From positions 2,857-66,856 of the forward strand of contig CAYZWU010000030.1 of the NCBI GenBank assembly GCA_964482235.1: a stretch of 64,000 bases of DNA, given 5' to 3'. The notes beneath the pieces were generated by a model that did no database searches, had not been told where the DNA came from, and saw nothing but the letters and a program-made list of their open reading frames with translations. The position numbers were made by a program, and so were the translations under genes. The stretch is from an uncultured Phycisphaerales bacterium. GTDB lineage: Bacteria > Planctomycetota > B15-G4 > CAYZWU01. This document shows positions 4,454-46,738 of the stretch, piece after piece (positions within the stretch are counted from its first letter, which is position 1; the number at the start of each line of letters is the position of its first letter).

Positions 4454-4927
4454 GAAACCTGCTCCTAATCCATGGGGTCTCGAAAGTTGACCAGTATTAA
4501 ATCCACACCGATTTTTATGATTTACCGTCAAAACGGGAGAGAGTAACAAAGGCGGATGCCAGCGTCAATGGGGCTGGGAAATCTCGCATCCCAGGATTTC
4601 GGGTTTTCTTTTTTTTTGAATTTCCGATCGTGCCGTGTAATTCTCGCTTCAGTGCGGTCTTACGAAGCCGTCGGATGTTTCGTTCATTCAGGGAACGATT
4701 TTTCACCCTCTTCCGGCATTGTCAATTCCTTGCCATTTTCCGTGATTTGCCGGGCTTTCGAGCGGAGACGCGGAAAAAGAAGCCGCGCCTTCGTTCTCGA
4801 AGCAGTTCAGCGGCAGTCTCTTACAGCCGCAAGCCGTCATTCGGTGCGGTACTTGGAATCGAGAGGCCCCATCGTGTATCATCATTACCTTTTCCAGAAG
4901 CTTCGATCATGAAAGGATGGCAGCTTC

Positions 4928-18832: not shown

Positions 18833-21800
18833 TCAGAGCTTCACCGTGACGAAACGCTCGTCGTCGCCGGCTGCGATCTCCACGTCCATGCGGCGCGTGG
18901 TGTAGCCCGGACAGCTCACCTTGAGGTGGTAGACGCCGGGCGCATACCGGCCGAGGGGGTACTGCCCGGCCGTCGCGGAGTCGGTGGAGTAGATGATCTC
19001 CATCAGCTCGGAGATGCCGATCAGGCCGGAGAGGCAAAGCCCGGAGCCGTCCTCGAGATCGAGAATCACCCCCGTGAGCGGATCCCCGGTCTTCTCATCC
19101 TGCACCCGGACGGTGACGGCAGCGCCGGGCTGAAGGGTCAGGTCGAGCGTGGACGTCTTCTCCTTCCTCACACTGACGTCGTACACCAGGGTGATCGCGT
19201 GGTCCTTGTGCTTGACGGCAGCGGTGTAGCTTCCCTCGCGAAGGCCCGCGAAGCGGTATTCCCCCTGCGAATCGCTCAGGCAGTCGGACCACTTTTCGAA
19301 GGAGCCCTCCCCCGTCTGCTGGAAGTAGATTGTGGCGCCCGCCACGGGCCGTCCCTTCCTGTCGGTCAGCGTCCCTTCGACCACGCCGCCCTTCTCCAGC
19401 TCGATGCGCAGGCCGCCTTTCTTCTGGCCCTTCAGGATCCCGATGCCCGGCACCTTGCTCCTGGCGTATCCGCCCGATTCGAAGCCGAGCATGTTGGCAC
19501 CGCCGGCGGTCAGCTCGTACGTTCCCTCGCGCAGGTTTCTCACCCTGAAGCGTCCCTCGGAGTCGGAGTAGATCTCGCCGATGCGCCCGCCCACGGCATC
19601 TGAAATGGGATCGCCGCTCTCCGTTCCCTCGGAACGGGTGATCTGGATCCTCACCTGAGGCAGCCTTTTCAGCGAGTCCCGATCGATCACGATCCCCTCG
19701 ATCGAACCACCGGGGAGATCCATGTCGTACTCGTAGCGATCCCTGTCCGGCACCTTCACCCTGAAGACCGTCTCGCAGGCCGATCCCGGAACCATGCCGT
19801 CCGTCCTGACGATCCGGAACGTGTAGTCGCCCGGTTCCATGTTCTTGAACAGGTAGCGTCCAGCGGTGTCGGTTCCCGCCGTGTACGTCCTTCCCTGCGC
19901 CTTCTTGCCTCCCCCGACCGGAACGGCGCTGATGAACGCGCTCTTCACCGGATCGCCCGCGTCGCGGATGACTCCGGTGACGACCCGCGAGCCGTCATCG
20001 ACGTTGACCCGGAAGTCCAAGGTCTTGATCTGATCCTTCTCGAGCTTCACCGCCTTGATGTCGAGGCCGCTCATCAGCGATCCGAGGAAGTCGTCATCCA
20101 TGTCGAATCGCATGGCCAGGCGCGTCACCTGGTACGAGCCGGGCGGCAGCCCGCTGATCTCGTAGAATCCGTCCCCGTCCGTGCGTCCCGACTTCATGGT
20201 CGAGGCCGTGGGAGTCGAGACGATGAGGCTCGCGCCGGAGACCGGCCTGCCGTCCGGGCCGTAGACATGGCCCTTGATCACGGCGCCCCGTGTGAGAAAG
20301 AGCTCGAAGCCCTCGACTGTCTCTCCTTCCATCACGACGATACGGTCGAGATGGAGCGGCTCGTACCTCTGATGGGAAACGATCAGCTTGACCGGTCCGG
20401 CGTCGAGGCGGCCGAAGCGGAACCGGCCCGACTCGTCCGAAACCACCAGGTCGCCGCCCCTGAAGCGTTCCATCAGGTTCTCGATACCCGTCTTGAGCGA
20501 GACGGAAGCCCCCTCGACAGGCTCGCGCGTCTCGGAATCGTAGACCGTGCCGGCGATCGCGGCCTCCTTCGGCATCAGGATCATCAATCCGCGGACCGAC
20601 TCCCCTTCCTCCACCTGAATGCCGCGGAGCTTGCGCGTGGCAAAACCGTTCGCCGAGAGGGTGAGGTTGTACCTGTCCGGCTTGACGTGGGCGATCTCGA
20701 ACCTGCCGAGCTCGTCCTTCTCCTTGTGGCGGATCCTCGACTTGAATCCGTAGGGATCGAGCATGTCCTTGTTCACCGCGGGATCGAGGAAGATCGTGTA
20801 TTCCTGCACCGGTTCACCGTCGATGGCGGAGACCACGATGCCGGAGATGGCGCCTCCCTCCTTCAGCCGGATCAGCACCTCGTCGTCCCCGGGCCGGAAT
20901 CCGGTGTGCGAGTTGTCGGCAGTGCCTTCCCAGGTGATCTCCAGGTCGTATTTCACATCGCGCAGACCCTGGCAGCAGAAACGGCCCTCCGCGTCGGCGA
21001 GGACGGGCTTCGCGGTCTCCTGCTCCCTGAGGTTGTCGATCAGGGCCGCCAGGTTGAAGTGGGGGAAGGCTTTGACCCGGGCTTTCGCTGCCGGCTTCCC
21101 GTCACCGCGGACGATCCTGCCGGAAAGGGCCAGTCCCCTGTCGAGTACGAGCTTCAGGTCGTCGTGGGATTCGCCGCCCGCCAGCTTCAGCCCCTTGATC
21201 GTGGCTCTCAGGAATCCCGGTTCGTTCAGGGAGATCTGGTAGCTGCCCGGGGCGAGAGCGTCGAAGCGGAAGGTGCCGTCCTTTTCCGTGTCGGCCTTCC
21301 TTTCCATCAGCTTGTTGTCGCCTGCCGTCACATTGGTGAGCAGATCGTCCACCTTGAGAGCCATCACCGAGATGTCCGCAACGGGCTTCTCGTCCTGGTC
21401 GAGCACGATGCCTGAAATCGATGCGGCGTCGGGAAGCACGACCTCGGTGGTGGTCGCTTTACCGGCTCTGAGGGAAACGCGGCTGGCCAGGCAGGGGGAG
21501 AAGCCGTCCGCCATGGCATCGACGATCATCTCTCCGCGGCACGGCACGGCCTGGAACCTGAAGCGGCCGTTCTTGTCCGCCGTTGTCGTGAAGGGAGTGA
21601 GAAGCCCGTCCTGTCCCGAGAAGACGATCATGGGATCGAACTTCTCTCTCAACGTCACCGTGGCACCGGGGACCGGGTTGCCGCGGCTGCAGACGACCGT
21701 TCCCTCGAGAACGCCGCCCTCGCTCAGGATCAGGCGCACCGGAACATCGGGCTTCCTGTCGCTCCATGACAGGGGGCGTGGCTTCGAGAGATAGAGAAAG

Positions 21801-22333
21801 TCGTCGTCAGGCACGAGATAGACGGCGTCCTGCTTCGGTATGGCGATCGAGAAGCCGCCGTCGGCGCCGGTCCGCGCCCGCGAGCCGCTTCTCGCTTCGT
21901 CGAGCATGGCCTGGTCCTTGACGGTGTTGTTTTTGTTGTTCTTTTCCTGATCGAAAGGCACCAGGGAGAACGGCGGCTTGCGGATACTGCAGACGAGCGA
22001 GACCGGGCCCTCGAGGTCGAAGCCCTTTTCCAGGACCGCTCTGCCGTGGATCACGGCCTCGCCGCCCCGGTCTTTCGAGATGAGGACTCTCGCCCCTTTT
22101 TTTCCGGACTCGCCCTCCTCCATGATCTCCGTGACGGGCCCCTTGTCCCCGGCTTCCGTCTCGTACAAAGCCGGCGTCACGTTGCCGGAGCCGGTGCCGA
22201 TATCCTGCGAGTCCCCGAGGGAGGGGCGATCGTCCGGCACGGTCTTGTCGTTGAAGAGAAGGATCGCAACGAGCCCCACGACCAGGACGGACGCAATCAG
22301 CAGGAGCGAAAATGGTTTGATGCTTGATCCCAT
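18833..22333 (-). CDS. large membrane-anchored surface protein made of about 10 tandem carboxypeptidase-regulatory-like (CarboxypepD_reg / Cna-B-like beta-sandwich) domains
   Basis: N-terminal signal anchor FSLLLIASVLVVGLVAILLF. Recurring roughly 90-aa units with a G-x-V-x-D-x-x-G-x-P-V-x-G-A-x-V pattern, followed by a ...DxxGxFxF... hairpin. Confidence 0.65.
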   Translation of the reverse strand: MGSSIKPFSLLLIASVLVVGLVAILLFNDKTVPDDRPSLGDSQDIGTGSGNVTPALYETEAGDKGPVTEIMEEGESGKKGARVLISKDRGGEAVIHGRAVLEKGFDLEGPVSLVCSIRKPPFSLVPFDQEKNNKNNTVKDQAMLDEARSGSRARTGADGGFSIAIPKQDAVYLVPDDDFLYLSKPRPLSWSDRKPDVPVRLILSEGGVLEGTVVCSRGNPVPGATVTLREKFDPMIVFSGQDGLLTPFTTTADKNGRFRFQAVPCRGEMIVDAMADGFSPCLASRVSLRAGKATTTEVVLPDAASISGIVLDQDEKPVADISVMALKVDDLLTNVTAGDNKLMERKADTEKDGTFRFDALAPGSYQISLNEPGFLRATIKGLKLAGGESHDDLKLVLDRGLALSGRIVRGDGKPAAKARVKAFPHFNLAALIDNLREQETAKPVLADAEGRFCCQGLRDVKYDLEITWEGTADNSHTGFRPGDDEVLIRLKEGGAISGIVVSAIDGEPVQEYTIFLDPAVNKDMLDPYGFKSRIRHKEKDELGRFEIAHVKPDRYNLTLSANGFATRKLRGIQVEEGESVRGLMILMPKEAAIAGTVYDSETREPVEGASVSLKTGIENLMERFRGGDLVVSDESGRFRFGRLDAGPVKLIVSHQRYEPLHLDRIVVMEGETVEGFELFLTRGAVIKGHVYGPDGRPVSGASLIVSTPTASTMKSGRTDGDGFYEISGLPPGSYQVTRLAMRFDMDDDFLGSLMSGLDIKAVKLEKDQIKTLDFRVNVDDGSRVVTGVIRDAGDPVKSAFISAVPVGGGKKAQGRTYTAGTDTAGRYLFKNMEPGDYTFRIVRTDGMVPGSACETVFRVKVPDRDRYEYDMDLPGGSIEGIVIDRDSLKRLPQVRIQITRSEGTESGDPISDAVGGRIGEIYSDSEGRFRVRNLREGTYELTAGGANMLGFESGGYARSKVPGIGILKGQKKGGLRIELEKGGVVEGTLTDRKGRPVAGATIYFQQTGEGSFEKWSDCLSDSQGEYRFAGLREGSYTAAVKHKDHAITLVYDVSVRKEKTSTLDLTLQPGAAVTVRVQDEKTGDPLTGVILDLEDGSGLCLSGLIGISELMEIIYSTDSATAGQYPLGRYAPGVYHLKVSCPGYTTRRMDVEIAAGDDERFVTVKL

Positions 22334-22672: not shown

Positions 22673-25588
22673 ATGGCCTCCCCGGATTCTGTCAAGCCGG
22701 TCTATCTCGTCGTTGTCTTCGGCATGGTGATGGCGGCAGCCGCTGTCCTCGTATTGTACGATCCCGCAGGTAGTGCGCTGGGCGGGAATCCGGCCGACGC
22801 GGCTGATCCTTCCGCCCAGTACGGCCAGGATCTGTCCACGCACCGCACCGGCGCCCGATCCGGCAGCCCTGGCGGGCATGATACCGACGCCCGGCAGGAC
22901 CTTTACGACTCTTCCCTGACCGAAGCGCCCGTCCGCGAGGCGATCTCCGATTCGGTTCTCACCTCGTGCGTCAAGGGGAAGGTGAAAACGCCGCAGGGAG
23001 ATGGCCTGCCCGGCGCCGAGCTCCTGCTCCATCCCGGTCTTCCTCAGGCTCTTCGTCCGCTCCTGGCAGGAGGCTCGTACTCGGCAGAGGCGACAACCGG
23101 GCAGGATGGCACCTTCGAGATTCCCCTGCCGGCGGAGGGGGTTTTCCGGCTCGAGGTGAAGAAGGAGGGCTTCGCCTCGGCCGACGTCGGCGTTGTGCTG
23201 CCGGGCGACGATCTGGCCGTTGTGCTTCAGCCGGGACGTTTTCTCGAGGGCGAGGTCCGCGACGCCCTCTCGGGCGACGTGATCTCCGGTGCGGCGATCC
23301 GCGCGCGTCATCACCGCCAGACCTTCGAGGCCGAATCGAAGGCGAACGGCACGTTCCGATTCGGCGATCTGCCCGAGGGGATCTATTCTCTCGAAGCGTT
23401 TCACGAAAGCTATGAGGTGGAGCGTCTCGAGGGAATCACGGTCTCGAGCGGAAGCTCGAGCGATGTCACCCTGGAGCTCCGTTCAGGCGGTACGATCAAG
23501 GGGAGGGTCTCGGCCCTCGACACGGGCAAGCCCGTTCCCGAATCCCGCGTGACCTACACCGTGGTGTTCCGTGGCGAGGCGGGGCGCGAGGAGATGTTCC
23601 GGCAGGAGGCTTTCACCAACGAGAAGGGCCTCTTCTTCTTCGAGAACGTCTCCCGGCGGGGAGCGCGCATCGTGGCCGTCGCCGCCGGCTTCTCGCCGGG
23701 CACTCCGGAGCCTTTCCTGCCTCCGGAAGCGGATCCCGGCGATGAGATCGATATCGAGGTCTTCCTGAAGAGGGAGAGCGGCGTTGCCGGAGTCGTTGTC
23801 GATCCCGACGGCAATCCGTTGAAGGGCGCCGCTGTCCGCGCACTGAGGACACGGATGTCCTCCGGCCGGGTTCCCCGCGCAACGACGGATGCCGAAGGCG
23901 CCTTCCGGCTCGAAGGGCTGGAGGGCGATCCCGGCTTCGTCCTTGCCGCCTATCACGGCCTGCACGGCACGGCTTTTTCCGGCTACCTCCTCGCCGCCCG
24001 GGGCGAGATCCTCGAGGATGTGACTCTCCCCCTGAAGCGCTTCGCCTCGATCAAGGGTGCTGTGTCCGCCCCGGACGGGCGGCCTTTCCAGGGCGCGCGC
24101 GTCACTCTCGACGGCATTCGCGGCTTCATGAGGGAGGAGGAGCGCGCGGCGCCCCTCGTGGTGACCGACGAGGAAGGTTGCTTCGCTTTCGAGAAACTGG
24201 TGCCGGGCAGGTACTGCCTCGCCTCGCACAAGGGCAATCTGAGAAGCGAAGCCCTGGATCTGACACTCCTCGAGGGCGAAACGCTCGACGCGGCTCTCAC
24301 TCTGGAGAACGGTCTCGCACTGACAGGCAAGGTGGTCGATCCTCTTGGACAGCCCCTGGACGACGTCCTGGTGACAGCGGTGGCGATCGAGAAGGAACAG
24401 ACAACCAAGCGGCCCCAGCCGAAGGGCATCGACAAGAAGAAGAGCAGCCGGAAGGCCGGCAAGGAGGCTCGCCCAGCTCAGAAGAAGTCCCCGCAGCGGG
24501 AGAACGACCTCCTGCGCCGGAGCGGCTTCGCCCGCTTCCGCGGCAATGCGCGCAGCGACGAGGACGGATTGTTCTGCCTGGCCGGACTGCGCCGGGACGA
24601 CAACCTCGTTGTCACCTTTCGCCGCTACGGATACCTCACCGAGACGGCGGCGGACATCTCGCCTTCCCTGGAAGGCCGGCAGGTCACCCTGAAGCCCGAG
24701 GCCGCCCTGCAGGGCCGGGTCGCCGACTTCGCCACGAACCGCCCGCTGGAACGGTACCGCGTCGAGTGGATTGCGGTGGAGCCGGGCGAGACGGGAGAAC
24801 CGGCCGAGATCTTCAAGAGGAAGGCGCGGCAGAGCCGGGCGCGTTCCGTCCAGACGCTGGACGGCAATTTCCTGATCGAGCGCGTCGAGGCGGGAGAGGT
24901 GGTCCTGCGCGTCTCGGCCAGGGGATATCGCAGCAGCGAACCCCGGCGTCTCTTTGTATCGCCCCTCTACGGCGCCGCGTTCCAGAGTTTCCTTCTCGAC
25001 AAGGGCGGCGTGGTGACGGGAAGGGTCGTCGCCGCGGACTCGTCGCCCGTCGAAGGCATCCCCGTCCACCTCGGCAAGGCCGACCAGGGAAGGGAGAGGA
25101 GGAACAAGAAGAAGAAAGGAAAGAAGGAGGCGGGAGTGAAACCGGCCAGGACGTCCAGGGGAGGGCAGTCGCGCCGGACGGACCACAAGGGCCGCTTCGA
25201 GTTTCACAACCTGCCTGAAGGATCGTACCAGCTCGTGGTGGGCGATTCGAAGCGCCCGCTCGTCGATCCCAGGAACGTCCGTCTCCGCCGCGGAGACAAC
25301 GTCTCGAAGTCGTTCGTTCTCCGCGACCTCTGCGGCGTCGAGGTGCGCGTGACCGGCAAGGCGGGATCGTGCCGGGCTGACGTGAAACTGACGGGCGGAC
25401 CGGCCAAGGCCGTCTTCCGCAAGAGATCGGGAAACCTCGGAATCGTGTCGTTCCGGAACCTTCTTCCCGGAAAATACAGGTTGCACGTCCAGGCCAGGGG
25501 ATATAAGTCTTTCTCCGGAGGCCTGGAACTCGAGGAGAAGGGCCGCATCAAAAAGGAAGTGTCCCTCGAGGAGCGGCGACCGCGATAA
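22673..25588 (+). CDS. large membrane-anchored surface protein of tandem carboxypeptidase-regulatory-like domains, paralogue of 18833..22333 and divergently transcribed
   Basis: N-terminal anchor VYLVVVFGMVMAAAAVLVLY. At least 9 repeats (GKVKTPQGDGLPGAELLL, GVVVDPDGNPLKGAAVRAL, GAVSAPDGRPFQGARVTL, GRVVAADSSPVEGIPVHL and others). Stop TAA lies inside the first copy of a 22-bp tandem repeat. Confidence 0.65.
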   Translation: MASPDSVKPVYLVVVFGMVMAAAAVLVLYDPAGSALGGNPADAADPSAQYGQDLSTHRTGARSGSPGGHDTDARQDLYDSSLTEAPVREAISDSVLTSCVKGKVKTPQGDGLPGAELLLHPGLPQALRPLLAGGSYSAEATTGQDGTFEIPLPAEGVFRLEVKKEGFASADVGVVLPGDDLAVVLQPGRFLEGEVRDALSGDVISGAAIRARHHRQTFEAESKANGTFRFGDLPEGIYSLEAFHESYEVERLEGITVSSGSSSDVTLELRSGGTIKGRVSALDTGKPVPESRVTYTVVFRGEAGREEMFRQEAFTNEKGLFFFENVSRRGARIVAVAAGFSPGTPEPFLPPEADPGDEIDIEVFLKRESGVAGVVVDPDGNPLKGAAVRALRTRMSSGRVPRATTDAEGAFRLEGLEGDPGFVLAAYHGLHGTAFSGYLLAARGEILEDVTLPLKRFASIKGAVSAPDGRPFQGARVTLDGIRGFMREEERAAPLVVTDEEGCFAFEKLVPGRYCLASHKGNLRSEALDLTLLEGETLDAALTLENGLALTGKVVDPLGQPLDDVLVTAVAIEKEQTTKRPQPKGIDKKKSSRKAGKEARPAQKKSPQRENDLLRRSGFARFRGNARSDEDGLFCLAGLRRDDNLVVTFRRYGYLTETAADISPSLEGRQVTLKPEAALQGRVADFATNRPLERYRVEWIAVEPGETGEPAEIFKRKARQSRARSVQTLDGNFLIERVEAGEVVLRVSARGYRSSEPRRLFVSPLYGAAFQSFLLDKGGVVTGRVVAADSSPVEGIPVHLGKADQGRERRNKKKKGKKEAGVKPARTSRGGQSRRTDHKGRFEFHNLPEGSYQLVVGDSKRPLVDPRNVRLRRGDNVSKSFVLRDLCGVEVRVTGKAGSCRADVKLTGGPAKAVFRKRSGNLGIVSFRNLLPGKYRLHVQARGYKSFSGGLELEEKGRIKKEVSLEERRPR

Positions 25589-25651: not shown

Positions 25652-28600
25652 ATGATCAAGCTTTTCCCGCGATCCGGACCAATGACTCTCCCGAGGCATC
25701 TTGCCCTTGCCGCCGCCGTCGTCCTGATCGGCTTCGCGGCCGCATCAAGCGATGAATCGGCCGCTGACGCCGGCGCCACCTACACGGAGCGCCACCTGGC
25801 TTCCGCCCGGACGCATCGCGACGCCGGACGGTCCGAGGAGGCGCGGGCCGAATTCCTGAAGGTCCTGGAGCGCGACGGCGGAAACTTTCATGCCCTCGAG
25901 GGGCTCGTGTCCCTGGCCGTTGAGGCCGGCGAGGAGGACGAGACGGTCTACTACATGTACCGTTTCGTAGACAGGGCGTCGAAGCTCAGGGACCTCGATG
26001 CCCCGCATCGCAAGCGGCTCAAGGAATACAAGCTCCTTCTCAAGGAGAAGGACCCGAACCACGGCAAGCTCGGATCGTATCGCGCCGCTCACCTGCGCCG
26101 CCTCCTCAATCTCGGCGCCGCCCACATGAAGAAGGGGCGCTACCACTCGGCCAAGGCGATCTTCGAGGAGGTCCTGCACATCGCTCCATCGAACGCCGAG
26201 GCGCGGGCCGCGCTCCGCCGGATCCGCACCGACGCGGGCAACGAGCTGGCCGAGGAGAGGCCGGCCGGAACGGAGGACCTATTCTCCGACGTGACCCGCG
26301 AGTGGATCGAGAAGCAGGACGCCCGCCACTCCACCTGGGACACGGCCTGGGAGAAGAAGCTCGACAACTACACGATTTTCACCGATGCGGGATACGAGGT
26401 TCTCGAGATCATCGCCCTGGCCCTGGAGCAGCTCGATACCTTCTTCAGGATCTTCTACGACTACAAGACCGACGGCAGCGGCACGCCGCACATCCAGATC
26501 AAGATCTACAAGGACCGGGCCGAGTTCATGCGGCTGGGAAAGCCCCACGTGGACTGGGCCGCCGGCTTCTACAACGGCAGCGCCGTGGTGACCTACGATC
26601 CCCGGGGGAGCCGGGCGGCAGGCGACGGCCGCTCCGAGATGGAGCCGTCCCGCTCCCTCAAGGGATTGATCCAGACGCTGGCGCACGAGGTGAGCCACCA
26701 CTTCGTCAGCATCGCTCCCGGCTCGGGCGTGCCGGCCTGGATGAACGAGGGCTTCGCGTCGTTCTTCGAGGGAACGCGGCTTCTTTCCAACGGGCGGATC
26801 GAGTGGAACATCGTGGCGCCGCACCGCCTGAGGCCGCTGGTCGAATACCTCCAGTCGGAGAAGCCGCCGGACCTGGCCAGGATCATCTCCTGCCGCGTGG
26901 ACGACTACAGGATCTTCTATCCCTACGGATGGGGTCTCGTCTACTTCCTCTGGAACTACGAGGACGAGGAAGGGAACTACCTCTACAGGAATGTGCTCCG
27001 CGAGTACCGCGCCCTCTACGTGGGCGGGGTGGACCATTTGGAGCGCTTCACGAAGTTCATCATCGAGAGGCCCGACGTGCCCGGTATCTCGAACCTGCAG
27101 GAGTTCGAGGAGGTGTTCACCGGCTATATCCTGAAGGTCAACGAGGAATACCTGGGCCGCACCGAGGTGGCGCGGCAGTACGAGGAGCGGGCCGACGAGT
27201 TCATGGAGAACGAGAACGTGGAGAAGGCCCTTCTCTTCTACGAGAAGGCCCTGGCGAAGCTCCCGGAGGATCCAGGCCTTCTCTGGAAGCTGGCCCGGGT
27301 GCTCGAAGCCCTGGGAGAGAACGACCGGGCCGCGGGAACGTACCGGACCTTCCTGACCCGGGCCGAGTTCCACGGGATCACCGACGATCCCCGTCTCGCC
27401 GCGGCGCGCGAGAAGATCGAGAAGCTCGATCCCATCGCCGGCCGCTTCCGGAAGATCCGGGAGCAGTTCGAATCGGACATCCTCTTCGTGGCGCGCACCT
27501 ACAGGGATCTCGGCCTCTTCCTGATGGCTCTCCAGACGGCGCGCGAGCTTGCCGTTGCCGACAACCCGTCGATCCCGGCGCGCGACTTCTACCTCGACGT
27601 GGAGAAGGAGAGCGGCAAGACCCTCGAGCAGTGGCAGGTGGCGTTCAACGAGACCGACCTCAGCGGGTGGTACGGCGAGGACATCGTCGACGAGTTCCGC
27701 GTCGAGGACGATCGCCTCGTCGGGGAGGTGGAGGAGGGCGACGTGCCCGACCAAGGCAAGGCGACGCGGACCGGCTCCGACATGGGGGAGAAGCCGACGA
27801 TCCCCTACAAGATCTTCCTTCTCGACCGGGAGATCCAGGGCGACTTCTCCTTCGACACCGAGGTGCGTGCGCCCGAGGCATGCGAGCTTTACGGGATCTG
27901 CTTCGGGGCCAGAACGAAGGACGCCTTCCAGTCCGTTCTGCTCAAGAGCGATCAGAATCTCGATTTCTCGACCTTCGACGGCGGCTGGACGATCCTGCGC
28001 CACATCCCCGTGATGTTCGATCCGGCGGAGTGGAACAGGCTGCGCGTCGATGTCCGCGGCAGGCTGGTCAGCATCAGGATGAACGGCGAGCTGGTGGAGG
28101 AGCTCGAGTTCGAGTCGGGTGCCGAGCTTCGCGGCGACGTGGGCATCCTGGTCGGCAAGGGGCTCGCTGAGTATCGCAACATCCGCTTCCTCGAGCGCAA
28201 CTGGCGGCTGCCGTCGCGCCGCATCAAGCGCACCTTCGAGTCGCGCTACAGCCCGGACGCCCTTCCCGAGAGGGCGGGGCCGGGTCAGCTCTCCTACCGC
28301 GGCAAGTTTCCGCCGCCTCTCACGATCGGCGCCTGGCGGAACACGGCCCCCCTCACCCTCGACAAGCTGATCGGCAAGGTGGTGGTCCTGGCCTTCTGGT
28401 CGCAGGACCAGGAGAGCTCCCTGCCCACCCTGCCCGTTTATCAGAAGCTCCTCGAAGAGTACGGCGATACCGACGTGGAGCTCCTCGTCGTGGCCAACGA
28501 GAAGGAGTACGTGGTGGACGCCTTTCTCGCCGAGTGCGGGCTGCCGCTGAAGATGGCCGTGGACCGGCGCGATCACCGGACGATCATCGACTACGGCATC

Positions 28601-29440
28601 CCTGACACGGGGCTGCCGCGATTCCTTCTCATCGATCTGAACGGCAAGGTCGTCTGGGACGGAAACCCGGACTGGAGCAAGAAGTACGGATCGTACCTCG
28701 ACAAGCCGCTGGCCGACCTGGTGAAATCGCTCCGCCTCAGGGATATCGCCAGGCTCCGCGCCCGCTTCCCTGAAGCGAAGCAGGCCCTGAGCGAGGGCCG
28801 GTTCAAGGAGGCGCTCGACGTCTACGGCGGATTCCAGGGGATGAGCCCGGCGCACGCCGACGTCCGCTTCGCCCAGGGCGAGTTGGAGAGGATCCGGCGG
28901 GCCTCCCGCGACCTCCTCGGCCTGGCGCAGCAGCGCCGGGAGAAGGGGAACTATCTCGGGGCGCTGGACCTCCTCGAGAAGCTGGCCGCCCAGTTCCAGG
29001 GCTCACCCTTCGCGGGAGATCCGGACAGCGAGATCAGGAAGTTGAAGAAGGAGCCGCTCTTCGAGGACGCCCGCTGGATCGAGTTCCGTGCGGTCTCGGC
29101 CATGGAAGCCCTGGGCAAGGGCGGCACCGGGAAGTTCGCCGATCTCTTGAAGCGGATCGGCGACCGCCTCGAGCGGCTATCCACTGCGGGAAAAGGCGGC
29201 CTGCGCGAGATCGAGTTCGCTCTGATCCGCTCCTGGCTCGCTACGGGGCAGAAGAATCCCGCCGGCTTCGCAGGCCGCCTGGCTGCGCACAGGGAGATCA
29301 GGATTTCCCTCGAGACGATCGAGGAGATGGCCGCCGGTACGCGCCTTTTCGAAGCCAGGCGACTCCTGGCCGAGCTTGTCGCCAGGGCGCAGGGCACCCC
29401 GTACCAGGAGATCGTGGACCGCCTCCTGGACCGGCTCTGA
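25652..29440 (+). CDS. secreted multidomain protein: TPR, HExxH peptidase-MA-like (DUF1570-like) domain, TPR, DUF1080/LamG-like jellyroll, cysteine-less TlpA-like thioredoxin-fold domain, TPR
   Basis: Signal peptide. TLAHEVSHHF...WMNEGFASFFEG (HExxH ... NEG). Jellyroll ending in GILVGKGLAEYRNIRFLE (DUF1080-like). KVVVLAFWSQDQESSLP where TlpA-type proteins have WCxxC. Several TPR-like helical repeats at both ends. Confidence 0.55.
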   Translation: MIKLFPRSGPMTLPRHLALAAAVVLIGFAAASSDESAADAGATYTERHLASARTHRDAGRSEEARAEFLKVLERDGGNFHALEGLVSLAVEAGEEDETVYYMYRFVDRASKLRDLDAPHRKRLKEYKLLLKEKDPNHGKLGSYRAAHLRRLLNLGAAHMKKGRYHSAKAIFEEVLHIAPSNAEARAALRRIRTDAGNELAEERPAGTEDLFSDVTREWIEKQDARHSTWDTAWEKKLDNYTIFTDAGYEVLEIIALALEQLDTFFRIFYDYKTDGSGTPHIQIKIYKDRAEFMRLGKPHVDWAAGFYNGSAVVTYDPRGSRAAGDGRSEMEPSRSLKGLIQTLAHEVSHHFVSIAPGSGVPAWMNEGFASFFEGTRLLSNGRIEWNIVAPHRLRPLVEYLQSEKPPDLARIISCRVDDYRIFYPYGWGLVYFLWNYEDEEGNYLYRNVLREYRALYVGGVDHLERFTKFIIERPDVPGISNLQEFEEVFTGYILKVNEEYLGRTEVARQYEERADEFMENENVEKALLFYEKALAKLPEDPGLLWKLARVLEALGENDRAAGTYRTFLTRAEFHGITDDPRLAAAREKIEKLDPIAGRFRKIREQFESDILFVARTYRDLGLFLMALQTARELAVADNPSIPARDFYLDVEKESGKTLEQWQVAFNETDLSGWYGEDIVDEFRVEDDRLVGEVEEGDVPDQGKATRTGSDMGEKPTIPYKIFLLDREIQGDFSFDTEVRAPEACELYGICFGARTKDAFQSVLLKSDQNLDFSTFDGGWTILRHIPVMFDPAEWNRLRVDVRGRLVSIRMNGELVEELEFESGAELRGDVGILVGKGLAEYRNIRFLERNWRLPSRRIKRTFESRYSPDALPERAGPGQLSYRGKFPPPLTIGAWRNTAPLTLDKLIGKVVVLAFWSQDQESSLPTLPVYQKLLEEYGDTDVELLVVANEKEYVVDAFLAECGLPLKMAVDRRDHRTIIDYGIPDTGLPRFLLIDLNGKVVWDGNPDWSKKYGSYLDKPLADLVKSLRLRDIARLRARFPEAKQALSEGRFKEALDVYGGFQGMSPAHADVRFAQGELERIRRASRDLLGLAQQRREKGNYLGALDLLEKLAAQFQGSPFAGDPDSEIRKLKKEPLFEDARWIEFRAVSAMEALGKGGTGKFADLLKRIGDRLERLSTAGKGGLREIEFALIRSWLATGQKNPAGFAGRLAAHREIRISLETIEEMAAGTRLFEARRLLAELVARAQGTPYQEIVDRLLDRL

Positions 29441-29448
29441 AAACGGGA

Positions 29449-32079
29449 TCACTGCCCCTCTTCCCGATCATCCGCGGAGGAGGAGAGGCTGCGGTACTCG
29501 TCCGCCTTCTCCGGTTTTCCCCATTTCTCGTAGAGCCTGACCAGCAGGGCTATCGCCTTTCCGCGGAAGCCGCCGTCATCCTCCTGTTCCTCCGGGACGT
29601 TTTCCAGCACATCGAGGAGAAAAGCCTCCGCCTCGGAGAACCTTTCCTGATCGGTGAGGAAGCTCCCCAGGGAAAGGAGTGTCATGCTTGTTTCGGGATG
29701 GCTGTTTCCGAGGAGCACGCGCCGTCCTGCGAGCGCCTCGAGGAGAATACGTTCTCCCTCGACGGGCCTGCCCTGCTTCACGTGCATGGCCGCCAGGTTC
29801 GCCTTCAGGGTGAGCGTCCGCTGGTTCTCCACACCGCCGTGCTTGCGATCGTGCGCGGCGAGGGCATTCTCGTACAGCGCCTGGGCGTCGGCAAAGCGCC
29901 CCTGGAGCTGGAAAAGAAATGCGAGGTTGTTGATCGTGATGATCGTCTGGGGATGCGCCTCGCCCAGGAGGAGTTTCTGCCCTTCCAGCGATTCCCGCAT
30001 CAGCGTTTCCGCCTCCTCGTATCGTGCCATCTTGCCGAGCACGAGAGCGAGGTTGGCCTTGACCAGATGGGGCGCCACATCGTTTTCGATCCGCATCTTC
30101 CTGTAGGCATCGAGACACTTCCTGTAGAGCGCCTCGGCATCGTTCAGCCTGTTGCGGCTTTCGAGCGAGAGAGCCAGGGTGTTCATCGAGGCGATCGTGT
30201 CCGGGTCGCTTGCACCCAGAACGCGGGTCTGGGTGGAAACGGTCTCTTCAAGCAGCTTCCACGCCTTACCGTACTGACCCTTGTTGCAGAGTATGTCGCC
30301 CAGGAGGTGCTGCGTTCTCAGCGCTGCACGATTCTCCTTTCCCTCGAGGCGCTCCTGCGTCCAGAGCACTTCGAGGGTGAGCTTTTCCGCCTCGTCGAAC
30401 CGGCCCAGCTGCGCGAGCGCGGCTGCGAGGTTGTTCTGCCACTCGAGGGTCGTTTCGTCCTCCTTGCCCCTCATCCGGATCGACGCCTCCAGAGCGGCCC
30501 TTAGAAGCGGCTCCGCTTCGACCGACCGGCCGAGGCTGTGATAGATCGCTCCGAGGGTGTGGCGCAGCGAGGCTTCGATGTCCGGATTCTCGGACGAGTC
30601 GGTGTTCACCTCGAGGACAGCCTTCTCCAGGGCATCGACGACCTTGATCTCCCGGCCGTCCAGCCCGGGAATGGGAGTCGAGAGGATCGCGTTCAGGAAG
30701 GCGGAGACCGTGGCCGCCAATTCGCGCTCGGCCCGGGCCAGCGCCTCGCTCGCGGCCCGTCTCTCGCACTCCTCCCGGACTTTCCTTTCGCTGGCTGCCC
30801 GCTTCCGGCACTCCTCGCGGGCCGTCCTCTCGCTGGCCACGAGCTGGGGATACGACCAGAGCATGTAGCCGACGAGAACGACGAGCGAGAGGACGGCCAC
30901 TCCCACCGCCGCGCTGACCAGCGGATACCTCCTGATCCGCCGCATGAGCTTCCTGGTCAGGCTCGCCGGCTTGGCCCGGATCGTCTCGCCCTGGAGAAAG
31001 CGCTCGATGTCCTCGCTGAGCTCCTTCATGGTCGCGTAGCGCGCTTCGGGCTGCTTCTCCATCGCCTTGATGCAGATCACGGCCAGGTCGTTCGGGACGC
31101 GCGGATTGACCTTGCAGGGGTTGCGGGGATCGATCAGCACGATCTTGCGCAGGACCTCCTGCGACGTCTCGCCCTGGAAGGGGCGCTCCAGGGTGAGCAG
31201 CTCGTAGAACGTGACGCCCAGGGAGAAGATGTCCGTCTTGTGGTCGATCCCGATGCGGCGACTCATCGCCTGCTCGGGCGACATGTAATAGGGAGTGCCG
31301 GCGAAATCGCCTGTACGGGAAAGGGCCAGGGCGTCTTCCACCTTGGCCAGGCCGAAGTCCGTTATCTTGGGGCGTCCGTCTCTTGTGAGAAGGATGTTCG
31401 TGGGCTTGATGTCGCGGTGGATGACCCCTGACTCGTGGGAGAACTGGAGCGCCTCGGCCAGCGTCTTCACGATCCCGGCCACCTCGCGGAAGTAGCCGAT
31501 CCGCGGCGGGGATTCCCCGCGTATCTCGTCGAGCCAGTCTCCCAGGGTGCGGCCGTTGTCGATGAGCTCCTGGGCGATGTAGTGAACACCCTTGTCCTCG
31601 CCAACGCCGAAGATCGAGACGATTCCGGGGTGGCTCTGCCGCCCGGCGGCCTCTGCCTCGCGGTGGAACTTCACCACGGCCTCGTCGGAGTAGCTCAGGT
31701 GCGAGGGAAGGATCTTGAGCGCCACTCGGCGCTTCATCGGGATCTGCTCCGCCTCGTACACGGTGGCCATGCCGCCGGCGCCGATCTTCCGGGTTATCCT
31801 GTAATCGCCCAGGATCTTCGGCGCTCCGTCTCCGGCGTTCTTGTCGTTAATGGAATCGAGATCGATCTCAACGGGCCGGCGGGCCTTGATCCTGGCGAAG
31901 AACTTCTCGAGATCCTTCTTCAGCTCGGGGTAGAGCCGGAGGTACTCCTCGGGATCGACCTCTTCACCCGATTCCCTGCGGGAGAGGTATTGCTTGAATA
32001 CCTTTTCGGATTCGCTGAGCCTTTTCTTCTCTTCCGGCGAATCAGGGTTGTTCCTGTCGCCGCTCCGGCCTGCCATCAA
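29449..32079 (-). CDS. Hanks-type Ser/Thr protein kinase with a transmembrane helix and C-terminal TPR repeat domain
   Basis: Kinase motifs GAGGMATVYEA, VALK, HRDIKPTNILL, DFGLAK, GTPYYMSPE. TM helix YPLVSAAVGVAVLSLVVLVGYMLW. About 9 TPR units afterwards. Internal 13-aa duplication AREECRKRAASER / VREECERRAASEA. Confidence 0.85.
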   Translation of the reverse strand: MMAGRSGDRNNPDSPEEKKRLSESEKVFKQYLSRRESGEEVDPEEYLRLYPELKKDLEKFFARIKARRPVEIDLDSINDKNAGDGAPKILGDYRITRKIGAGGMATVYEAEQIPMKRRVALKILPSHLSYSDEAVVKFHREAEAAGRQSHPGIVSIFGVGEDKGVHYIAQELIDNGRTLGDWLDEIRGESPPRIGYFREVAGIVKTLAEALQFSHESGVIHRDIKPTNILLTRDGRPKITDFGLAKVEDALALSRTGDFAGTPYYMSPEQAMSRRIGIDHKTDIFSLGVTFYELLTLERPFQGETSQEVLRKIVLIDPRNPCKVNPRVPNDLAVICIKAMEKQPEARYATMKELSEDIERFLQGETIRAKPASLTRKLMRRIRRYPLVSAAVGVAVLSLVVLVGYMLWSYPQLVASERTAREECRKRAASERKVREECERRAASEALARAERELAATVSAFLNAILSTPIPGLDGREIKVVDALEKAVLEVNTDSSENPDIEASLRHTLGAIYHSLGRSVEAEPLLRAALEASIRMRGKEDETTLEWQNNLAAALAQLGRFDEAEKLTLEVLWTQERLEGKENRAALRTQHLLGDILCNKGQYGKAWKLLEETVSTQTRVLGASDPDTIASMNTLALSLESRNRLNDAEALYRKCLDAYRKMRIENDVAPHLVKANLALVLGKMARYEEAETLMRESLEGQKLLLGEAHPQTIITINNLAFLFQLQGRFADAQALYENALAAHDRKHGGVENQRTLTLKANLAAMHVKQGRPVEGERILLEALAGRRVLLGNSHPETSMTLLSLGSFLTDQERFSEAEAFLLDVLENVPEEQEDDGGFRGKAIALLVRLYEKWGKPEKADEYRSLSSSADDREEGQ

Positions 32080-32144
32080 GCTTACCCCTCTCGAAGTCTA
32101 TTCGATCCCTGCGTAAAACGGTCGGTCAAGGCAGAGCGATTTTT

Positions 32145-32819
32145 TCAATCTTCCTCTTTTTCCTTGTTCCGCTCATCGAGGATGAAGTCGCTGATCCGCA
32201 TCAAGCCGCGGCTGTACAGCTTCCGGACAGCCTCGGCCGACTTGTTCATGATCTTGCCGATCTGCTCGAAGGTCATCTCGTCTCTCATCCTGAGCACAAG
32301 GGCCTTGCGCTGGGGATCGGGGATCCTGTCGAGCAGACGGATGAACCTATCCAGATCCTCATCCTGCATGGCCGCCTCGCTCGGTGTGGGATCATCGGAT
32401 GGAGGCGGAGGCGCTCCCGGTGTCACGGAGTCGTCATTCACCAGCCGCTTTTCCCTGCCGATGTCCCGCTTGCCCGAAGCGAAGTAGCGTCCCTTGTCCT
32501 GGATCTTGTGAACAAGGCGTGTCAGCAGCCAGCGGAAGAATGAGTCCGGGCCACGATATTCGAACCCGTCCATGTCGCCCAGCACATCCTTCCAGACGGA
32601 CTGGACCAGGTCCACGCTTTCCATCCTGTCGCGCAGCCTCCTGCCCAGCCGCATCTTCACCGCTCCCTGCAGCCTCTCCGCATAGAGGCGGTAAAGGTCT
32701 GCCATGGCAGCCTGATCCCCCGCCTTGGCCTGAGAGAGCAGATCCCTCGTTTGGCAGTTGAGGTCGTCGCTCTGATCGCTCATCGGATGCATCATCTCCT
32801 CCAGTGGTGTATGCGTCAA
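32145..32819 (-). CDS. ECF-type sigma-70 family RNA polymerase sigma factor
   Basis: Region-2-like segment LVQSVWKDVLGDMDGFEY...FFRWLLTRLVHK. Region-4 HTH segment ALVLRMRDEMTFEQIGKIMNKSAEAVRKLYSRGLMRI. Sits immediately upstream of the kinase. Start could be an internal Met (MHPMSD or MSDQ). Confidence 0.75.
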   Translation of the reverse strand: MTHTPLEEMMHPMSDQSDDLNCQTRDLLSQAKAGDQAAMADLYRLYAERLQGAVKMRLGRRLRDRMESVDLVQSVWKDVLGDMDGFEYRGPDSFFRWLLTRLVHKIQDKGRYFASGKRDIGREKRLVNDDSVTPGAPPPPSDDPTPSEAAMQDEDLDRFIRLLDRIPDPQRKALVLRMRDEMTFEQIGKIMNKSAEAVRKLYSRGLMRISDFILDERNKEKEED

Positions 32820-32831
32820 GATTCGCCGGCA

Positions 32832-33740
32832 TTATTCGTATGCCTCGCGCGGTATCGAATGCGCCGGCCGGAATCCCACGTGGCCGCAGTTGCGCAGGGG
32901 GGCGCTCATTCCGCGGTTCGCCGAACGGCAGTAGCTGTTCTCGCGGCTCAGGAAGGAGCCGCCCCGTTTCACGCGGTAGGGGCTCGCGCCTTCATCCCAC
33001 GAGGAGCCGTCCCGCGGGGCATCTCTGTAGCTGTCGTGGACCCTGTCGCTGCAGAGCTCCCAGACGTTGCCGTGCATGTCGTGAAGCCCGAAGGCGTTGG
33101 GCCTTTTCCGCTTCACCTCGTGCGGCCGCCCGCCGGAGTTTCCCTTGTGCCAGGCATAGATGTCGAGCTCGGACTCGGAATCACCGAACGAATAGGAGGT
33201 GCGCGTGTCGGCCCGGCAGGCGAACTCCCACTCCGCCTCGGTGGGGAGCCGCAGCCCCGCCTTGCGGCACCAGTCGGAGACCGATTCCCAGCTGGCGCCC
33301 TCGACCGGAAGGTCGGCGCCGATGAACCGCCGGTCGTCCTGACCGCCTAGGGCGTCCCAGGCCTTCTTGGTGCACTCGGTGCGGCAGAGGAGAAAGGGCT
33401 GCACGGCAACGGGGTGGGGAGGAGATTCGTCCTGGTCCCCGTCCCGCCAGGAAGACCCCATCAAGAAGGTCCCCCCCGGTACCAGGACGAATTCCAACCC
33501 CGTTCTCTCATGAAAATAGATCCGCATCTTTCGTGTCACGCTTCCGCATGAATAGGTGTCTTCTCGGAGGTACCGGAACCCGGGAATCTCGAGGTCGACG
33601 GGCAGGGTCGTGATCTTCGCCGCGCCGCACTGCCAGCTGGCCTCTCCCCTGCCGAGCCCGGGACTTGCTGTAAAGCGGGATCCGGAACCGATCAAGGTCG
33701 CTATTCCCAGCAAGAAGAGGATTCCGCCTGGTATTTTCAT
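32832..33740 (-). CDS. secreted FGE/SUMF1-fold domain protein (sulfatase-modifying-factor-like, probably non-catalytic)
   Basis: Start MKIPGGILFLLGIATLIGSG (signal peptide) with an aagga RBS. Motifs LPTEAEWEFACRA, GLHDMHGNVWELC, RGGSFLSRENSYCRSANR. Only one of the two FGE catalytic Cys is present. Confidence 0.75.
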   Translation of the reverse strand: MKIPGGILFLLGIATLIGSGSRFTASPGLGRGEASWQCGAAKITTLPVDLEIPGFRYLREDTYSCGSVTRKMRIYFHERTGLEFVLVPGGTFLMGSSWRDGDQDESPPHPVAVQPFLLCRTECTKKAWDALGGQDDRRFIGADLPVEGASWESVSDWCRKAGLRLPTEAEWEFACRADTRTSYSFGDSESELDIYAWHKGNSGGRPHEVKRKRPNAFGLHDMHGNVWELCSDRVHDSYRDAPRDGSSWDEGASPYRVKRGGSFLSRENSYCRSANRGMSAPLRNCGHVGFRPAHSIPREAYE

Positions 33741-33854
33741 CGCTCTGTTCCTTAATGTAATCCGTGAGTCGGTTGTCTCGATCTGAACAGGTGAGCGAAA
33801 AAAGGCCGGGGAACCGGACAGAAAAAACGGGGAGGGCAAAGCTGTTCGATCGCT

Positions 33855-45284: not shown

Positions 45285-46738
45285 CTGCAAAACCTAAGTC
45301 TATCACCAGGGGATGATATCAAGACGAAGACGTCTGTCTAAGGGTGTGGAATTAGTCCTTGGCGTATAACGCGGACGGACTTTTCCGGAGGGGCAAAATC
45401 TAAAAATGAACTTGCAAAATAGAAATAATATTCTAATTTGCAAGACGTGATACGAAGAAGAGTTCGGCAACAACTTCTTGAGCGTCTGAAAATCCATCCG
45501 GCTGTGGCGCTGATCGGGCCACGCCAGTGTGGCAAGACCACCTTGGCGCAAACTCTGGGCGGAACCTATTTCGACCTGGAGCAGGAACCCGAACGCCTGC
45601 GCCTCGATCTGGAATGGGGGAGTCTCGAGGCAGGAAAGGACCTGGTGATTCTGGACGAGGCTCAGTCCTGGCCGGAGGTCTTCACCCGCCTGCGAGGGGC
45701 CATCGATAAGGATCGCAAGCGCATGGGCCGTTTTCTCCTGCTTGGATCCGTCTCTCCCTCGTTGATGGTTCAGGTTTCCGAATCCTTGGCAGGTCGCCTG
45801 TCGTTGATCGAGTTGACGCCGTTCTTCATGACTGAACTCACTACAAAGGCATCGCGGGAACACCTTTGGTTGTTTGGTGGGTACCCGGATGGCGGTGTGC
45901 TTGAACCCAAGCAATATCCGCGATGGCAACTGGACTACCTGGCACTGCTGAGCCAGCGGGATTTACCTTCATGGGGATTGCCCGCCAAACCGCAGACAAC
46001 CGACCGCTTGTTGCGCATGCTTGCCGCTTTGCACGGTCAGGTATGGAATGCTTCGCAGGTGGGGCAAAGCCTGGGACTTTCTTATCAGACAGTCAACAGC
46101 TACCTCGATTACTTCGAGGGCGCCTTTCTGACACGGCGACTCCAACCCTTTCAGGCGAACATCAAGAAACGGTTGGTCAAGAGCCCCAAGGTATACTGGC
46201 GCGACAGTGGTTTGCTTCATGCTCTCCTGAACGTATCGGACGAACGCGGCCTGCTGGCGCAACCATGGGTGGGGGCCAGCTGGGAGGGTTTCGTGATTGA
46301 GCAGGCGCTCGGCGAAATGTCTTCGCGCGGGCGGAATTTCAATGCCTACTACTTTAGAACCAGCGATCAGCACGAGCTTGATCTGGTGCTGGACTTCGGA
46401 AAAGATCGCTGGGCCGTCGAGGTGAAACTATCGTCCTCACCCGGCCTGGATGACATGAGACAATTGGATAAGACCGCTGACATGATCAGCGCAACACGTC
46501 GTTTCCTGGTATCGCAGACAAGCCGGTCGAGCGATGATGGGCGCCGGGTTTCCTGTAATCTGCCTTCGTTTCTGAAGCATCTTCGTGAGGAATCATAGTC
46601 GTATCAGAAAAAACACGGTCCGCCCGGTGCGCCTCCGGGTGGGCGAAAGCCTGGCAATGAACCATGGTTATACTGAACGACATGATCAAGACCGGATGTT
46701 CTTGTCGTGCGGGCATCGGACCGCGATCGCTCAGTGCA
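45285..46738 (+). mobile_element. about 1.45 kb lower-GC insert between the direct repeats, carrying one AAA ATPase gene. Candidate remnant of an integrated element
   Basis: Bounded by the imperfect direct repeats. AT-rich leader 45285-45437 (about 42% GC) with inverted repeat CTTGCAAA...TTTGCAAG. Codon usage of the ATPase gene differs visibly from flanking genes. No integrase or transposase in the window. Confidence 0.4.
45438..46598 (+). CDS. AAA-family ATPase with C-terminal DUF4143-like domain
   Basis: P-loop LIGPRQCGKTTLA, Walker B VILDEAQ. 386 aa. ORF-track start is TTG 45438. GTG 45447 is an alternative. Confidence 0.7.
   Translation: MQDVIRRRVRQQLLERLKIHPAVALIGPRQCGKTTLAQTLGGTYFDLEQEPERLRLDLEWGSLEAGKDLVILDEAQSWPEVFTRLRGAIDKDRKRMGRFLLLGSVSPSLMVQVSESLAGRLSLIELTPFFMTELTTKASREHLWLFGGYPDGGVLEPKQYPRWQLDYLALLSQRDLPSWGLPAKPQTTDRLLRMLAALHGQVWNASQVGQSLGLSYQTVNSYLDYFEGAFLTRRLQPFQANIKKRLVKSPKVYWRDSGLLHALLNVSDERGLLAQPWVGASWEGFVIEQALGEMSSRGRNFNAYYFRTSDQHELDLVLDFGKDRWAVEVKLSSSPGLDDMRQLDKTADMISATRRFLVSQTSRSSDDGRRVSCNLPSFLKHLREES

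Follow-up and report, generated by a model that had tools for sequence, protein, structure and literature searches.

A free FGE-fold protein gene adjoins an ECF sigma factor gene and is linked by neighbourhood to Hanks-type kinases in uncultured marine Phycisphaerales

The stretch of DNA analysed here, referred to as the window, comprises 64,000 nucleotides (nt) from a marine uncultured bacterium of the Phycisphaerales (Planctomycetota), and its predicted operon for a protein with the fold of the formylglycine-generating enzyme (FGE), an extracytoplasmic function (ECF) sigma factor and a Hanks-type Ser/Thr kinase (STK) is the subject of this report. Between positions 29449 and 33839 the minus strand carries three consecutive open reading frames (ORFs), with a GC content at third codon positions (GC3) of 0.78-0.84. 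In the direction of reading these encode FGE-2 (32832-33740; 302 aa from the ATG at 33740), a secreted or membrane-anchored protein of the FGE/SUMF1 fold; the ECF sigma factor (32145-32795; 216 aa from its ATG); and STK-TPR (29449-32079; 876 aa, or 875 from the ATG at 32076), a kinase with one transmembrane (TM) helix and a C-terminal array of tetratricopeptide repeats (TPRs). A second kinase gene, STK-FGE, lies at 61056-63617 of the plus strand and encodes an 853-aa fusion of a kinase domain, a TM helix and an FGE domain. All four ORFs had been proposed in a first-pass annotation of the window, and each was recovered at the same place.

The gap between the sigma and kinase genes is 65-68 nt, in agreement with the 65 bp proposed earlier. 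The gap between FGE-2 and sigma is 36 nt with the public gene call, which starts sigma at the ATG at 32795; the 12 bp of the first-pass annotation is obtained only if an in-frame TTG at 32819 is taken as the start codon, which would lengthen the protein to 224 aa. The identical sigma protein P0001 starts at the ATG. A scan of the operon detected no terminator-like sites above chance between its genes, and a scan of it for sigma-70-type promoters gave background only, except for a TTGACG-N17-GATGAT match that overlaps the sigma start.

The neighbourhood of these genes was followed in 52 loci collected around homologues of the sigma factor, FGE-2 and the fusion kinase; kinase, FGE, TPR and sigma segments were mapped by tblastn and kinase ectodomains by Pfam. 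Metagenome-assembled genomes (MAGs) labelled uncultured Phycisphaerales are the closest genomic relatives, and locus L001 is a syntenic 25-kb contig from a JGI metagenome with an identical sigma protein. Every sigma orthologue of at least 63% identity has an FGE-2 orthologue, 64-80% identical, immediately upstream, and these pairs represent six lineages (the window, L025, L002, L029, L050/L051 and L052). The gene order is PCMT, FGE, sigma and STK-TPR in the window and L001 (sigma identity 100%) and in L025 (80%); it is STK-FGE, FGE, sigma and DUF6765 in L002, which stands also for L003, L004 and L008 (65%), and STK-FGE, FGE and sigma in L029 and L050 (63% each). L051 (63%) and L052 (66%) carry FGE and sigma on contigs that end upstream. 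The FGE-sigma pair is therefore intact though both of its flanks are rearranged, with PCMT or STK-FGE upstream and STK-TPR, DUF6765 or another gene downstream. Conservation of the FGE-2/sigma adjacency, which the first-pass annotation had put forward as a test of its proposal, held in all six orthologous lineages. The triad that it had described was recovered in part: FGE-2, sigma and STK-TPR are contiguous in L025, but no TPR kinase adjoins the pair in L002, L029 and L050.

We read the gene upstream of the FGE-sigma pair in these last three lineages as an orthologue of the window's 61-kb fusion. Its identity to the fusion is 71% for the kinase domain (L002), 35-56% for the middle region and 47-57% for the FGE domain; the contigs of L029 and L050 retain just the C-terminal part of the gene, which matches the middle region and the FGE domain of the fusion. 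At sigma identities of 60% or less, none of the surveyed loci has a free FGE gene upstream, and most of these sigma genes are followed by a kinase with WD40 repeats (STK-WD40; L005, L010, L012, L015, L016, L017 and L036). Other family sigmas stand beside STK-FGE fusions in L030, L032/L038, L035 and L048, the L048 kinase being seen only as a 71-aa fragment. Surveying the ECF sigma neighbours of STK-FGE fusions, as had been suggested with the first reading, thus returned adjacency in L002, L029, L030, L032/L038, L035, L050 and L048. Among family sigmas of at least 40% identity, a Hanks kinase is adjacent or nearby in 14 of the 18 distinct contexts; the majority of these share 54-75% identity with the window kinases, and the ectodomains are TPR, WD40 or FGE. 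The sigma family is expanded, with at least 3-4 paralogues per Phycisphaerales MAG. The STK-WD40 kinases have 1300-1600 aa, and in L005 a kinase of 618 aa is followed by a separate 995-aa WD40 protein; in the STK-WD40 loci the kinase domains are 66-80% identical to one another and to the window kinases, and the ectodomains are swapped.

FGE-2 matches PF03781 (FGE-sulfatase) with E=6e-48 and has a hydrophobic N-terminus (aa 1-21 by hydropathy), in keeping with its first description as a signal-peptide FGE/SUMF1-fold protein. Structure prediction of FGE-2 alone, also suggested at that stage, gave a confident FGE fold: the AlphaFold2 model has a pLDDT of 88.9, with an N-terminal helix followed by disordered residues 20-39, and Foldseek matched it to FGE structures with a probability of 1.0. 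The closest structures are PvdO, TvpA (2y3c), the variable protein of a Treponema diversity-generating retroelement (DGR), and FGEs, and 2y3c is also the top sequence match in the PDB (E=1.4e-30). Such a strong family match would fit a true formylglycine-generating enzyme that matures sulfatases and sits beside the sigma gene incidentally, the more so since homologues are labelled 'formylglycine-generating enzyme' in their sources, Planctomycetota are sulfatase-rich and some surveyed loci contain sulfatase genes. The catalytic site speaks otherwise. FGEs use a copper-binding cysteine pair (C336/C341 in the human enzyme, within LCHxSYC), and where the Streptomyces FGE 2q17 has LCH-DSYC, FGE-2 has LSRENSYC; the first catalytic Cys is missing in all FGE-2 orthologues and the second is not conserved, being Leu in L002. 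Moreover, no NCBIfam equivalog reaches its cut-off with FGE-2, and both the adjacency to sigma and the promoter-like motif described below are conserved, which leaves an enzymatic role hardly credible. Judged from these residues, FGE-2 is a non-catalytic FGE-fold module; lacking the catalytic pair, it would serve in binding and not in catalysis, most plausibly as an extracytoplasmic binding protein. In this it resembles PvdO and TvpA, which share its fold, lack the cysteine pair and are not cytoplasmic, although the FGE-2 locus has neither a DGR nor a pyoverdine context. FGE-2 was also considered as a class I anti-sigma factor and rejected, because the hydrophobic segment stands at the very start of the protein, with no cytoplasmic anti-sigma domain ahead of it.

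Both window kinases keep the VALK, HRDIKPxN (HRDIKPTN in STK-TPR), DFG and SPE motifs. In STK-TPR, the predicted cytoplasmic catalytic domain (Pfam Pkinase) covers aa 93-352 (31024-31803, minus strand) and is followed by the TM helix at aa 384-414 (30838-30930; Kyte-Doolittle maximum 2.44) and by the TPR array at about aa 498-860 (29500-30588), where Pfam finds four TPR_12 stretches alongside TPR_10 matches. In the fusion, on the plus strand, the Pkinase domain covers aa 42-300 (61179-61955), the TM helix aa 333-362 (62052-62141, by hydropathy) and the FGE-sulfatase domain aa 601-847 (62856-63596). Hydropathy indicated a single TM segment in each window kinase and none in the sigma factor. Since the kinase domain must face cytoplasmic ATP and there is a single TM helix, topology places the TPR array of STK-TPR outside the cytoplasm, as is the case for most TPRs of single-pass planctomycetal STKs (PMC11032199). 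The kinase regions of the two proteins are 59% identical over 355 aa (E=3e-143) and 66% identical over the core, in an alignment that includes the shared stretches picked out at first pass (the one beginning VALK, and GVHYIAQEL). They are clearly paralogous, so the proposed relationship does not founder on the kinase alignment. Their description as near-identical was overstated, however, as 66% over the core is the family average: sigma-linked kinases share 59-80% pairwise identity when two divergent outliers are left out, and each of the two window kinases has some WD40 kinases as closer relatives than its counterpart in the window. In longer contigs from the window's genome, the 10 kb on each side of the STK-FGE gene contain no sigma gene.

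The first-pass annotation had treated the split and fused forms as a Rosetta-stone pair. In the strict version of this argument, FGE-2 is the detached sensor of the TPR kinase and docks on the TPR array, recreating an STK-FGE receptor. TPRs do mediate protein-protein contacts, FGE-2 and the TPR array are both predicted to be extracytoplasmic, and the FGE, sigma and STK-TPR genes are contiguous in the window and L025. Yet FGE-2 and the fused FGE domain are only 38% identical (E=4e-42) and fall into separate clades, as the FGE-2 orthologues form a tight clade without two insertions that all kinase-fused FGE domains have. A kinase domain occurs in none of the best 120 homologues of FGE-2. L002, L029 and L050 have free FGE-2 and fused FGE next to each other and no adjacent TPR kinase, so that FGE-2 without a TPR kinase is already seen across genomes; nor are the window kinases closer to each other than to WD40 kinases. 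FGE-2 and the fused domain are thus not the split and fused forms of one domain, the Rosetta-stone inference fails, and docking of FGE-2 as a detached sensor is improbable. What stands of the proposal is the grouping of the FGE gene, sigma and a Hanks kinase as a unit, through their conserved neighbourhood, and the assignment of the distant STK-FGE to the same circuit, through its orthologue directly upstream of FGE-sigma in L002, L029 and L050. At the sequence level, a functional link between the two loci is supported by this neighbourhood, which is stronger evidence than the Rosetta-stone argument.

DNA reaching from the upstream gene as far as the sigma start codon was aligned for four lineages. 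A T-rich tract followed by TGTCCGG-N16/17-CGCT(C/T)A was found about 55-60 nt before the FGE-2 start codon, in intergenic DNA that is otherwise divergent. In the window this promoter-like motif (TGTCCGG-N16-CGCT) occupies 33794-33820 of the minus strand, with the FGE-2 start codon about 55 nt downstream, and is the one site with the exact pattern, against 0.34 expected. It precedes FGE-2 in all five loci for which this sequence is present (the window, L025, L002, L029 and L050). Because its spacing and two-block form fit, we consider it a candidate ECF-type promoter, and we infer that it would be the autoregulated promoter of the operon. In L002, L029 and L050 the motif sits between STK-FGE and FGE-2, thus 3' of the kinase gene, and would therefore drive FGE-2 and sigma but not that kinase. 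Copies with one mismatch occur in the window at chance level, none of them upstream of the STK-FGE gene. Two further exact copies were found, both on the minus strand: one at 15679-15706 of L002, about 105 nt upstream of a Peptidase_S41 gene, and one at 5374-5399 of L038, upstream of a gene that precedes an STK-FGE gene and encodes a secreted protein of about 650 aa. The peptidase and the secreted protein are candidate members of a regulon of this sigma family. In L005 and L032, paralogous sigma genes are preceded by related TGTCC-N17-CGCT sites. Given that FGE-2 also accompanies kinases with an FGE ectodomain of their own, it is tied to the sigma gene and its candidate promoter and not to the TPR kinase specifically.

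Two observations concern the start codons in this region. A longer FGE-2 ORF from a TTG at 33839 would cross the conserved non-coding motif. Further downstream, the sequence CTTGACG (32814-32820, minus strand) is invariant in the window, L025, L002 and L029, at a distance of exactly 24 nt before the sigma ATG; the stretch between the two varies, except for a GGAGG-like ribosome-binding site. The TTG within CTTGACG is in frame with sigma in all four lineages, and the sequence is also part of the sigma-70-like TTGACG-N17-GATGAT match. It may act as an alternative start codon or as a regulatory site inside the operon.

The sigma factor (216-224 aa) matches the Pfam models Sigma70_ECF, r2, r4 and r4_2 and not r3, and hence consists of sigma2 and sigma4 only; Sigma70_ECF, r2 and r4 are found in the translation of 32145-32819. 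TIGR02937 of NCBIfam is above its cut-off for a sigma factor, and the best NCBIfam model is TIGR02984 (Sig-70_plancto1, "Planctomycetaceae-specific subfamily 1"), at 108 bits against a cut-off of 184. Pfam detected no anti-sigma domains (zf-HC2, RskA or other) in the operon or its neighbour genes. In the family alignment, E59-S60-V61-D62 of sigma2.2 occupies the canonical position of the acidic DAED motif, with Ser or Thr as the second residue in most members. In region 2.2 of ECF and other sigma70 proteins, Glu usually follows a conserved Gln; in the window sigma the conserved Q65 is followed by S66 (LVQ-S66), and distant members of the alignment that keep DAED also keep QE. The linker between sigma2 and sigma4 is variable except for an [S/T]-P-S motif (T137-P138-S139; about 32379-32387, minus strand) that is invariant in all 36 aligned members.

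Control of ECF sigmas by Hanks kinases is established, and several planctomycetal groups are predicted cases (PMC7826278, PMC8999054); the pairing of ECF sigmas with STKs was already regarded as known in the first-pass annotation, and it has indeed been described (PMC8999054, PMC13147305). As in EcfK/PknS of Xanthomonas citri and EcfP/PknT of Vibrio parahaemolyticus, the ECF sigma gene adjoins that of a single-pass Hanks kinase and no anti-sigma factor is present (PMC13147305, PMC8999054). The sigma2.2 motif of EcfP is STTA, the second Thr of which is phosphorylated, with PknT as the kinase (PMC8999054), while EcfK is phosphorylated at T51 (sigma2.2) and T106 (linker) by the TM kinase PknS, whose TPRs are periplasmic (PMC13147305). 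STK-TPR resembles PknS in its predicted periplasmic TPRs and in an N-terminal extension before the kinase domain. The window sigma shares with ECF43 sigmas a Ser/Thr in or near sigma2.2 and a conserved linker Ser/Thr, and its [S/T]-P-S motif recalls the linker phosphosite T106 of EcfK. These parallels are close, but the sigma2.2 motif keeps two acidic residues, with ESVD followed by QS in place of STTA. Further differences from both systems are the planctomycete-type sigma model (TIGR02984/PF07638), the gene for a secreted FGE-fold protein in the operon and the presence of two candidate kinases with different ectodomains.

Features are also shared with ECF59, ECF61, ECF62 and ECF217 (Casas-Pastor 2021), which come from Planctomycetota, have sigma followed by an STK with a WD40, TPR or other ectodomain, lack an anti-sigma factor and keep a DAED-like motif (PMC7826278, PMC8999054). 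The supplement on genomic context aside, the texts on these four groups make no mention of an FGE-fold accessory gene. The accessory domains found most often in planctomycetal STKs are TPR, WD40 and, in third place, FGE-sulfatase, and in single-pass proteins they are mostly periplasmic (PMC11032199); STK-FGE corresponds to the 'Proteo1' architecture of a bacterial STK atlas (10.1101/2025.01.12.632604). Gene 61056-63617 has exactly the architecture of the periplasmic FGE-sulfatase-domain kinases of Planctomycetota and Proteobacteria, but unlike those described, the fusion here and in relatives is syntenically linked both with an ECF sigma gene and with a further FGE-fold protein, which is free. 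Earlier work has thus described ECF sigmas paired with STKs, TPR-bearing receptor kinases of ECF sigmas and STK-FGE kinases of the periplasmic type (PMC8999054, PMC13147305, PMC11032199). Literature searches found no FGE-fold accessory in ECF/STK operons, and the new element is the free FGE-fold accessory gene that is predicted to be co-transcribed with the sigma gene, for which we found no earlier description.

We propose that the locus would encode a phospho-relay of the EcfP/PknT and EcfK/PknS kind, within a sigma/kinase family expanded in uncultured marine Phycisphaerales. A single-pass receptor kinase would sense a periplasmic signal through its ectodomain; the adjacent kinase in the window is STK-TPR, and STK-FGE at 61 kb would be the ancestral partner, judged from synteny in relatives. 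The kinase would autophosphorylate and then phosphorylate sigma, likely at S60 or S66 of sigma2.2 and/or at the invariant T/S-P-S of the linker, and the phosphoryl groups would supply the negative charge needed for binding to RNA polymerase beta-prime. Active sigma would read the TGTCCGG-N16/17-CGCT promoter and thereby raise the expression of FGE-2, of sigma itself and, in the window, of STK-TPR. FGE-2 would be induced together with sigma and exported, and in the periplasm it would most likely act as a partner or decoy of the kinase ectodomains, by attaching either to their ligand or to the TPR or FGE ectodomain itself. Phospho-activation of sigma by the kinase, the core of this model, is probable in our judgement. 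For the complete reading, in which FGE-2 is a co-induced periplasmic accessory of that activation, our preference is slight, and a signalling role for FGE-2 as such is put forward tentatively.

Several observations weigh against the proposed relay. ESVD retains two acidic residues, compared with STTA of EcfP, and for this reason the sigma factor may not be intrinsically inactive. No kinase was found near sigma in L026, L028 and L039. The FGE-sigma clade is narrow, with sigma identities of 63-100%, and stand-alone FGE homologues at 53-56% identity are not adjacent to a sigma gene. A simple role of FGE-2 as a missing sensor domain is unlikely too, because kinases found together with FGE-2 orthologues can possess an FGE ectodomain of their own.

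Within the proposed relay, FGE-2 could be a sigma-induced secreted paralogue of the kinase's sensor domain that exerts periplasmic feedback as a decoy or an ectodomain partner, a specific version that we regard as somewhat doubtful. If it is true, FGE-2 would be for kinase-controlled ECF sigmas what the co-transcribed anti-sigma factor is for classical ones, and the locus would represent a three-component system of accessory, receptor kinase(s) and sigma in which two kinases converge on one sigma. The same promoter-like motif allows another account, since FGE-2 would be induced together with sigma also if it were an output of the pathway, such as a secreted binding protein for an envelope or polysaccharide ligand, whose place in the operon would reflect no more than the frequent proximity of ECF sigma genes to their own regulon. 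The motif copies at the S41 peptidase (L002) and the secreted protein (L038) suggest a small envelope regulon of this kind, and the nearest relatives of FGE-2 are free secreted FGE proteins unrelated to kinases. However, the strict FGE-sigma adjacency survives rearrangement of both flanks, and FGE-fold ectodomains recur on partner kinases of the same sigma family, which points to a shared ligand or interaction and not to an unrelated effector. We consider the output role unlikely.

The proposed relay with an FGE-2 accessory bears on two wider questions, namely how kinase-linked ECF sigmas sense their signals and what is bound by periplasmic FGE-fold kinase ectodomains, which rank among the commonest sensor modules of planctomycetal kinases. 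The locus offers a free soluble FGE-fold protein genetically locked to a sigma gene, a candidate promoter, candidate phospho-acceptors and two partner kinases, and these handles allow work on ligand identity and on the design of the feedback. The payoff is moderate, given that the logic of a Hanks kinase acting on an ECF sigma is already established and the organism is uncultured.

Other genes in and near the window were also recorded. A third protein with an FGE-sulfatase domain (2693-4549, minus strand; 618 aa) has this domain at aa 97-347, followed by about 270 C-terminal residues without a Pfam match; the domain is 25-28% identical to the other two, and no kinase or sigma gene is nearby. 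The gene at 25652-29440 (plus strand) is convergent with STK-TPR, with 8 nt between the stop codons, and encodes a 1262-aa protein with TPRs and DUF1570, DUF1080 (3-keto-disaccharide hydrolase-like) and AhpC/TSA-redoxin domains. It is syntenic on L001, and a large convergent ORF lies at the same place in L025. Next to it, two divergent genes at 18833-22333 (minus strand) and 22673-25588 (plus strand) encode giant proteins of 1166 and 971 aa with CarboxypepD_reg-like repeats, and another protein with such repeats adjoins the STK-FGE gene beyond the end of the window (L044, 13468-15432). Finally, the AAA_14/DUF4143 ATPase gene at 45438-46598 (plus strand) may have been acquired horizontally, because its GC3 of 0.65 is clearly lower than the 0.8-0.9 of its neighbours.

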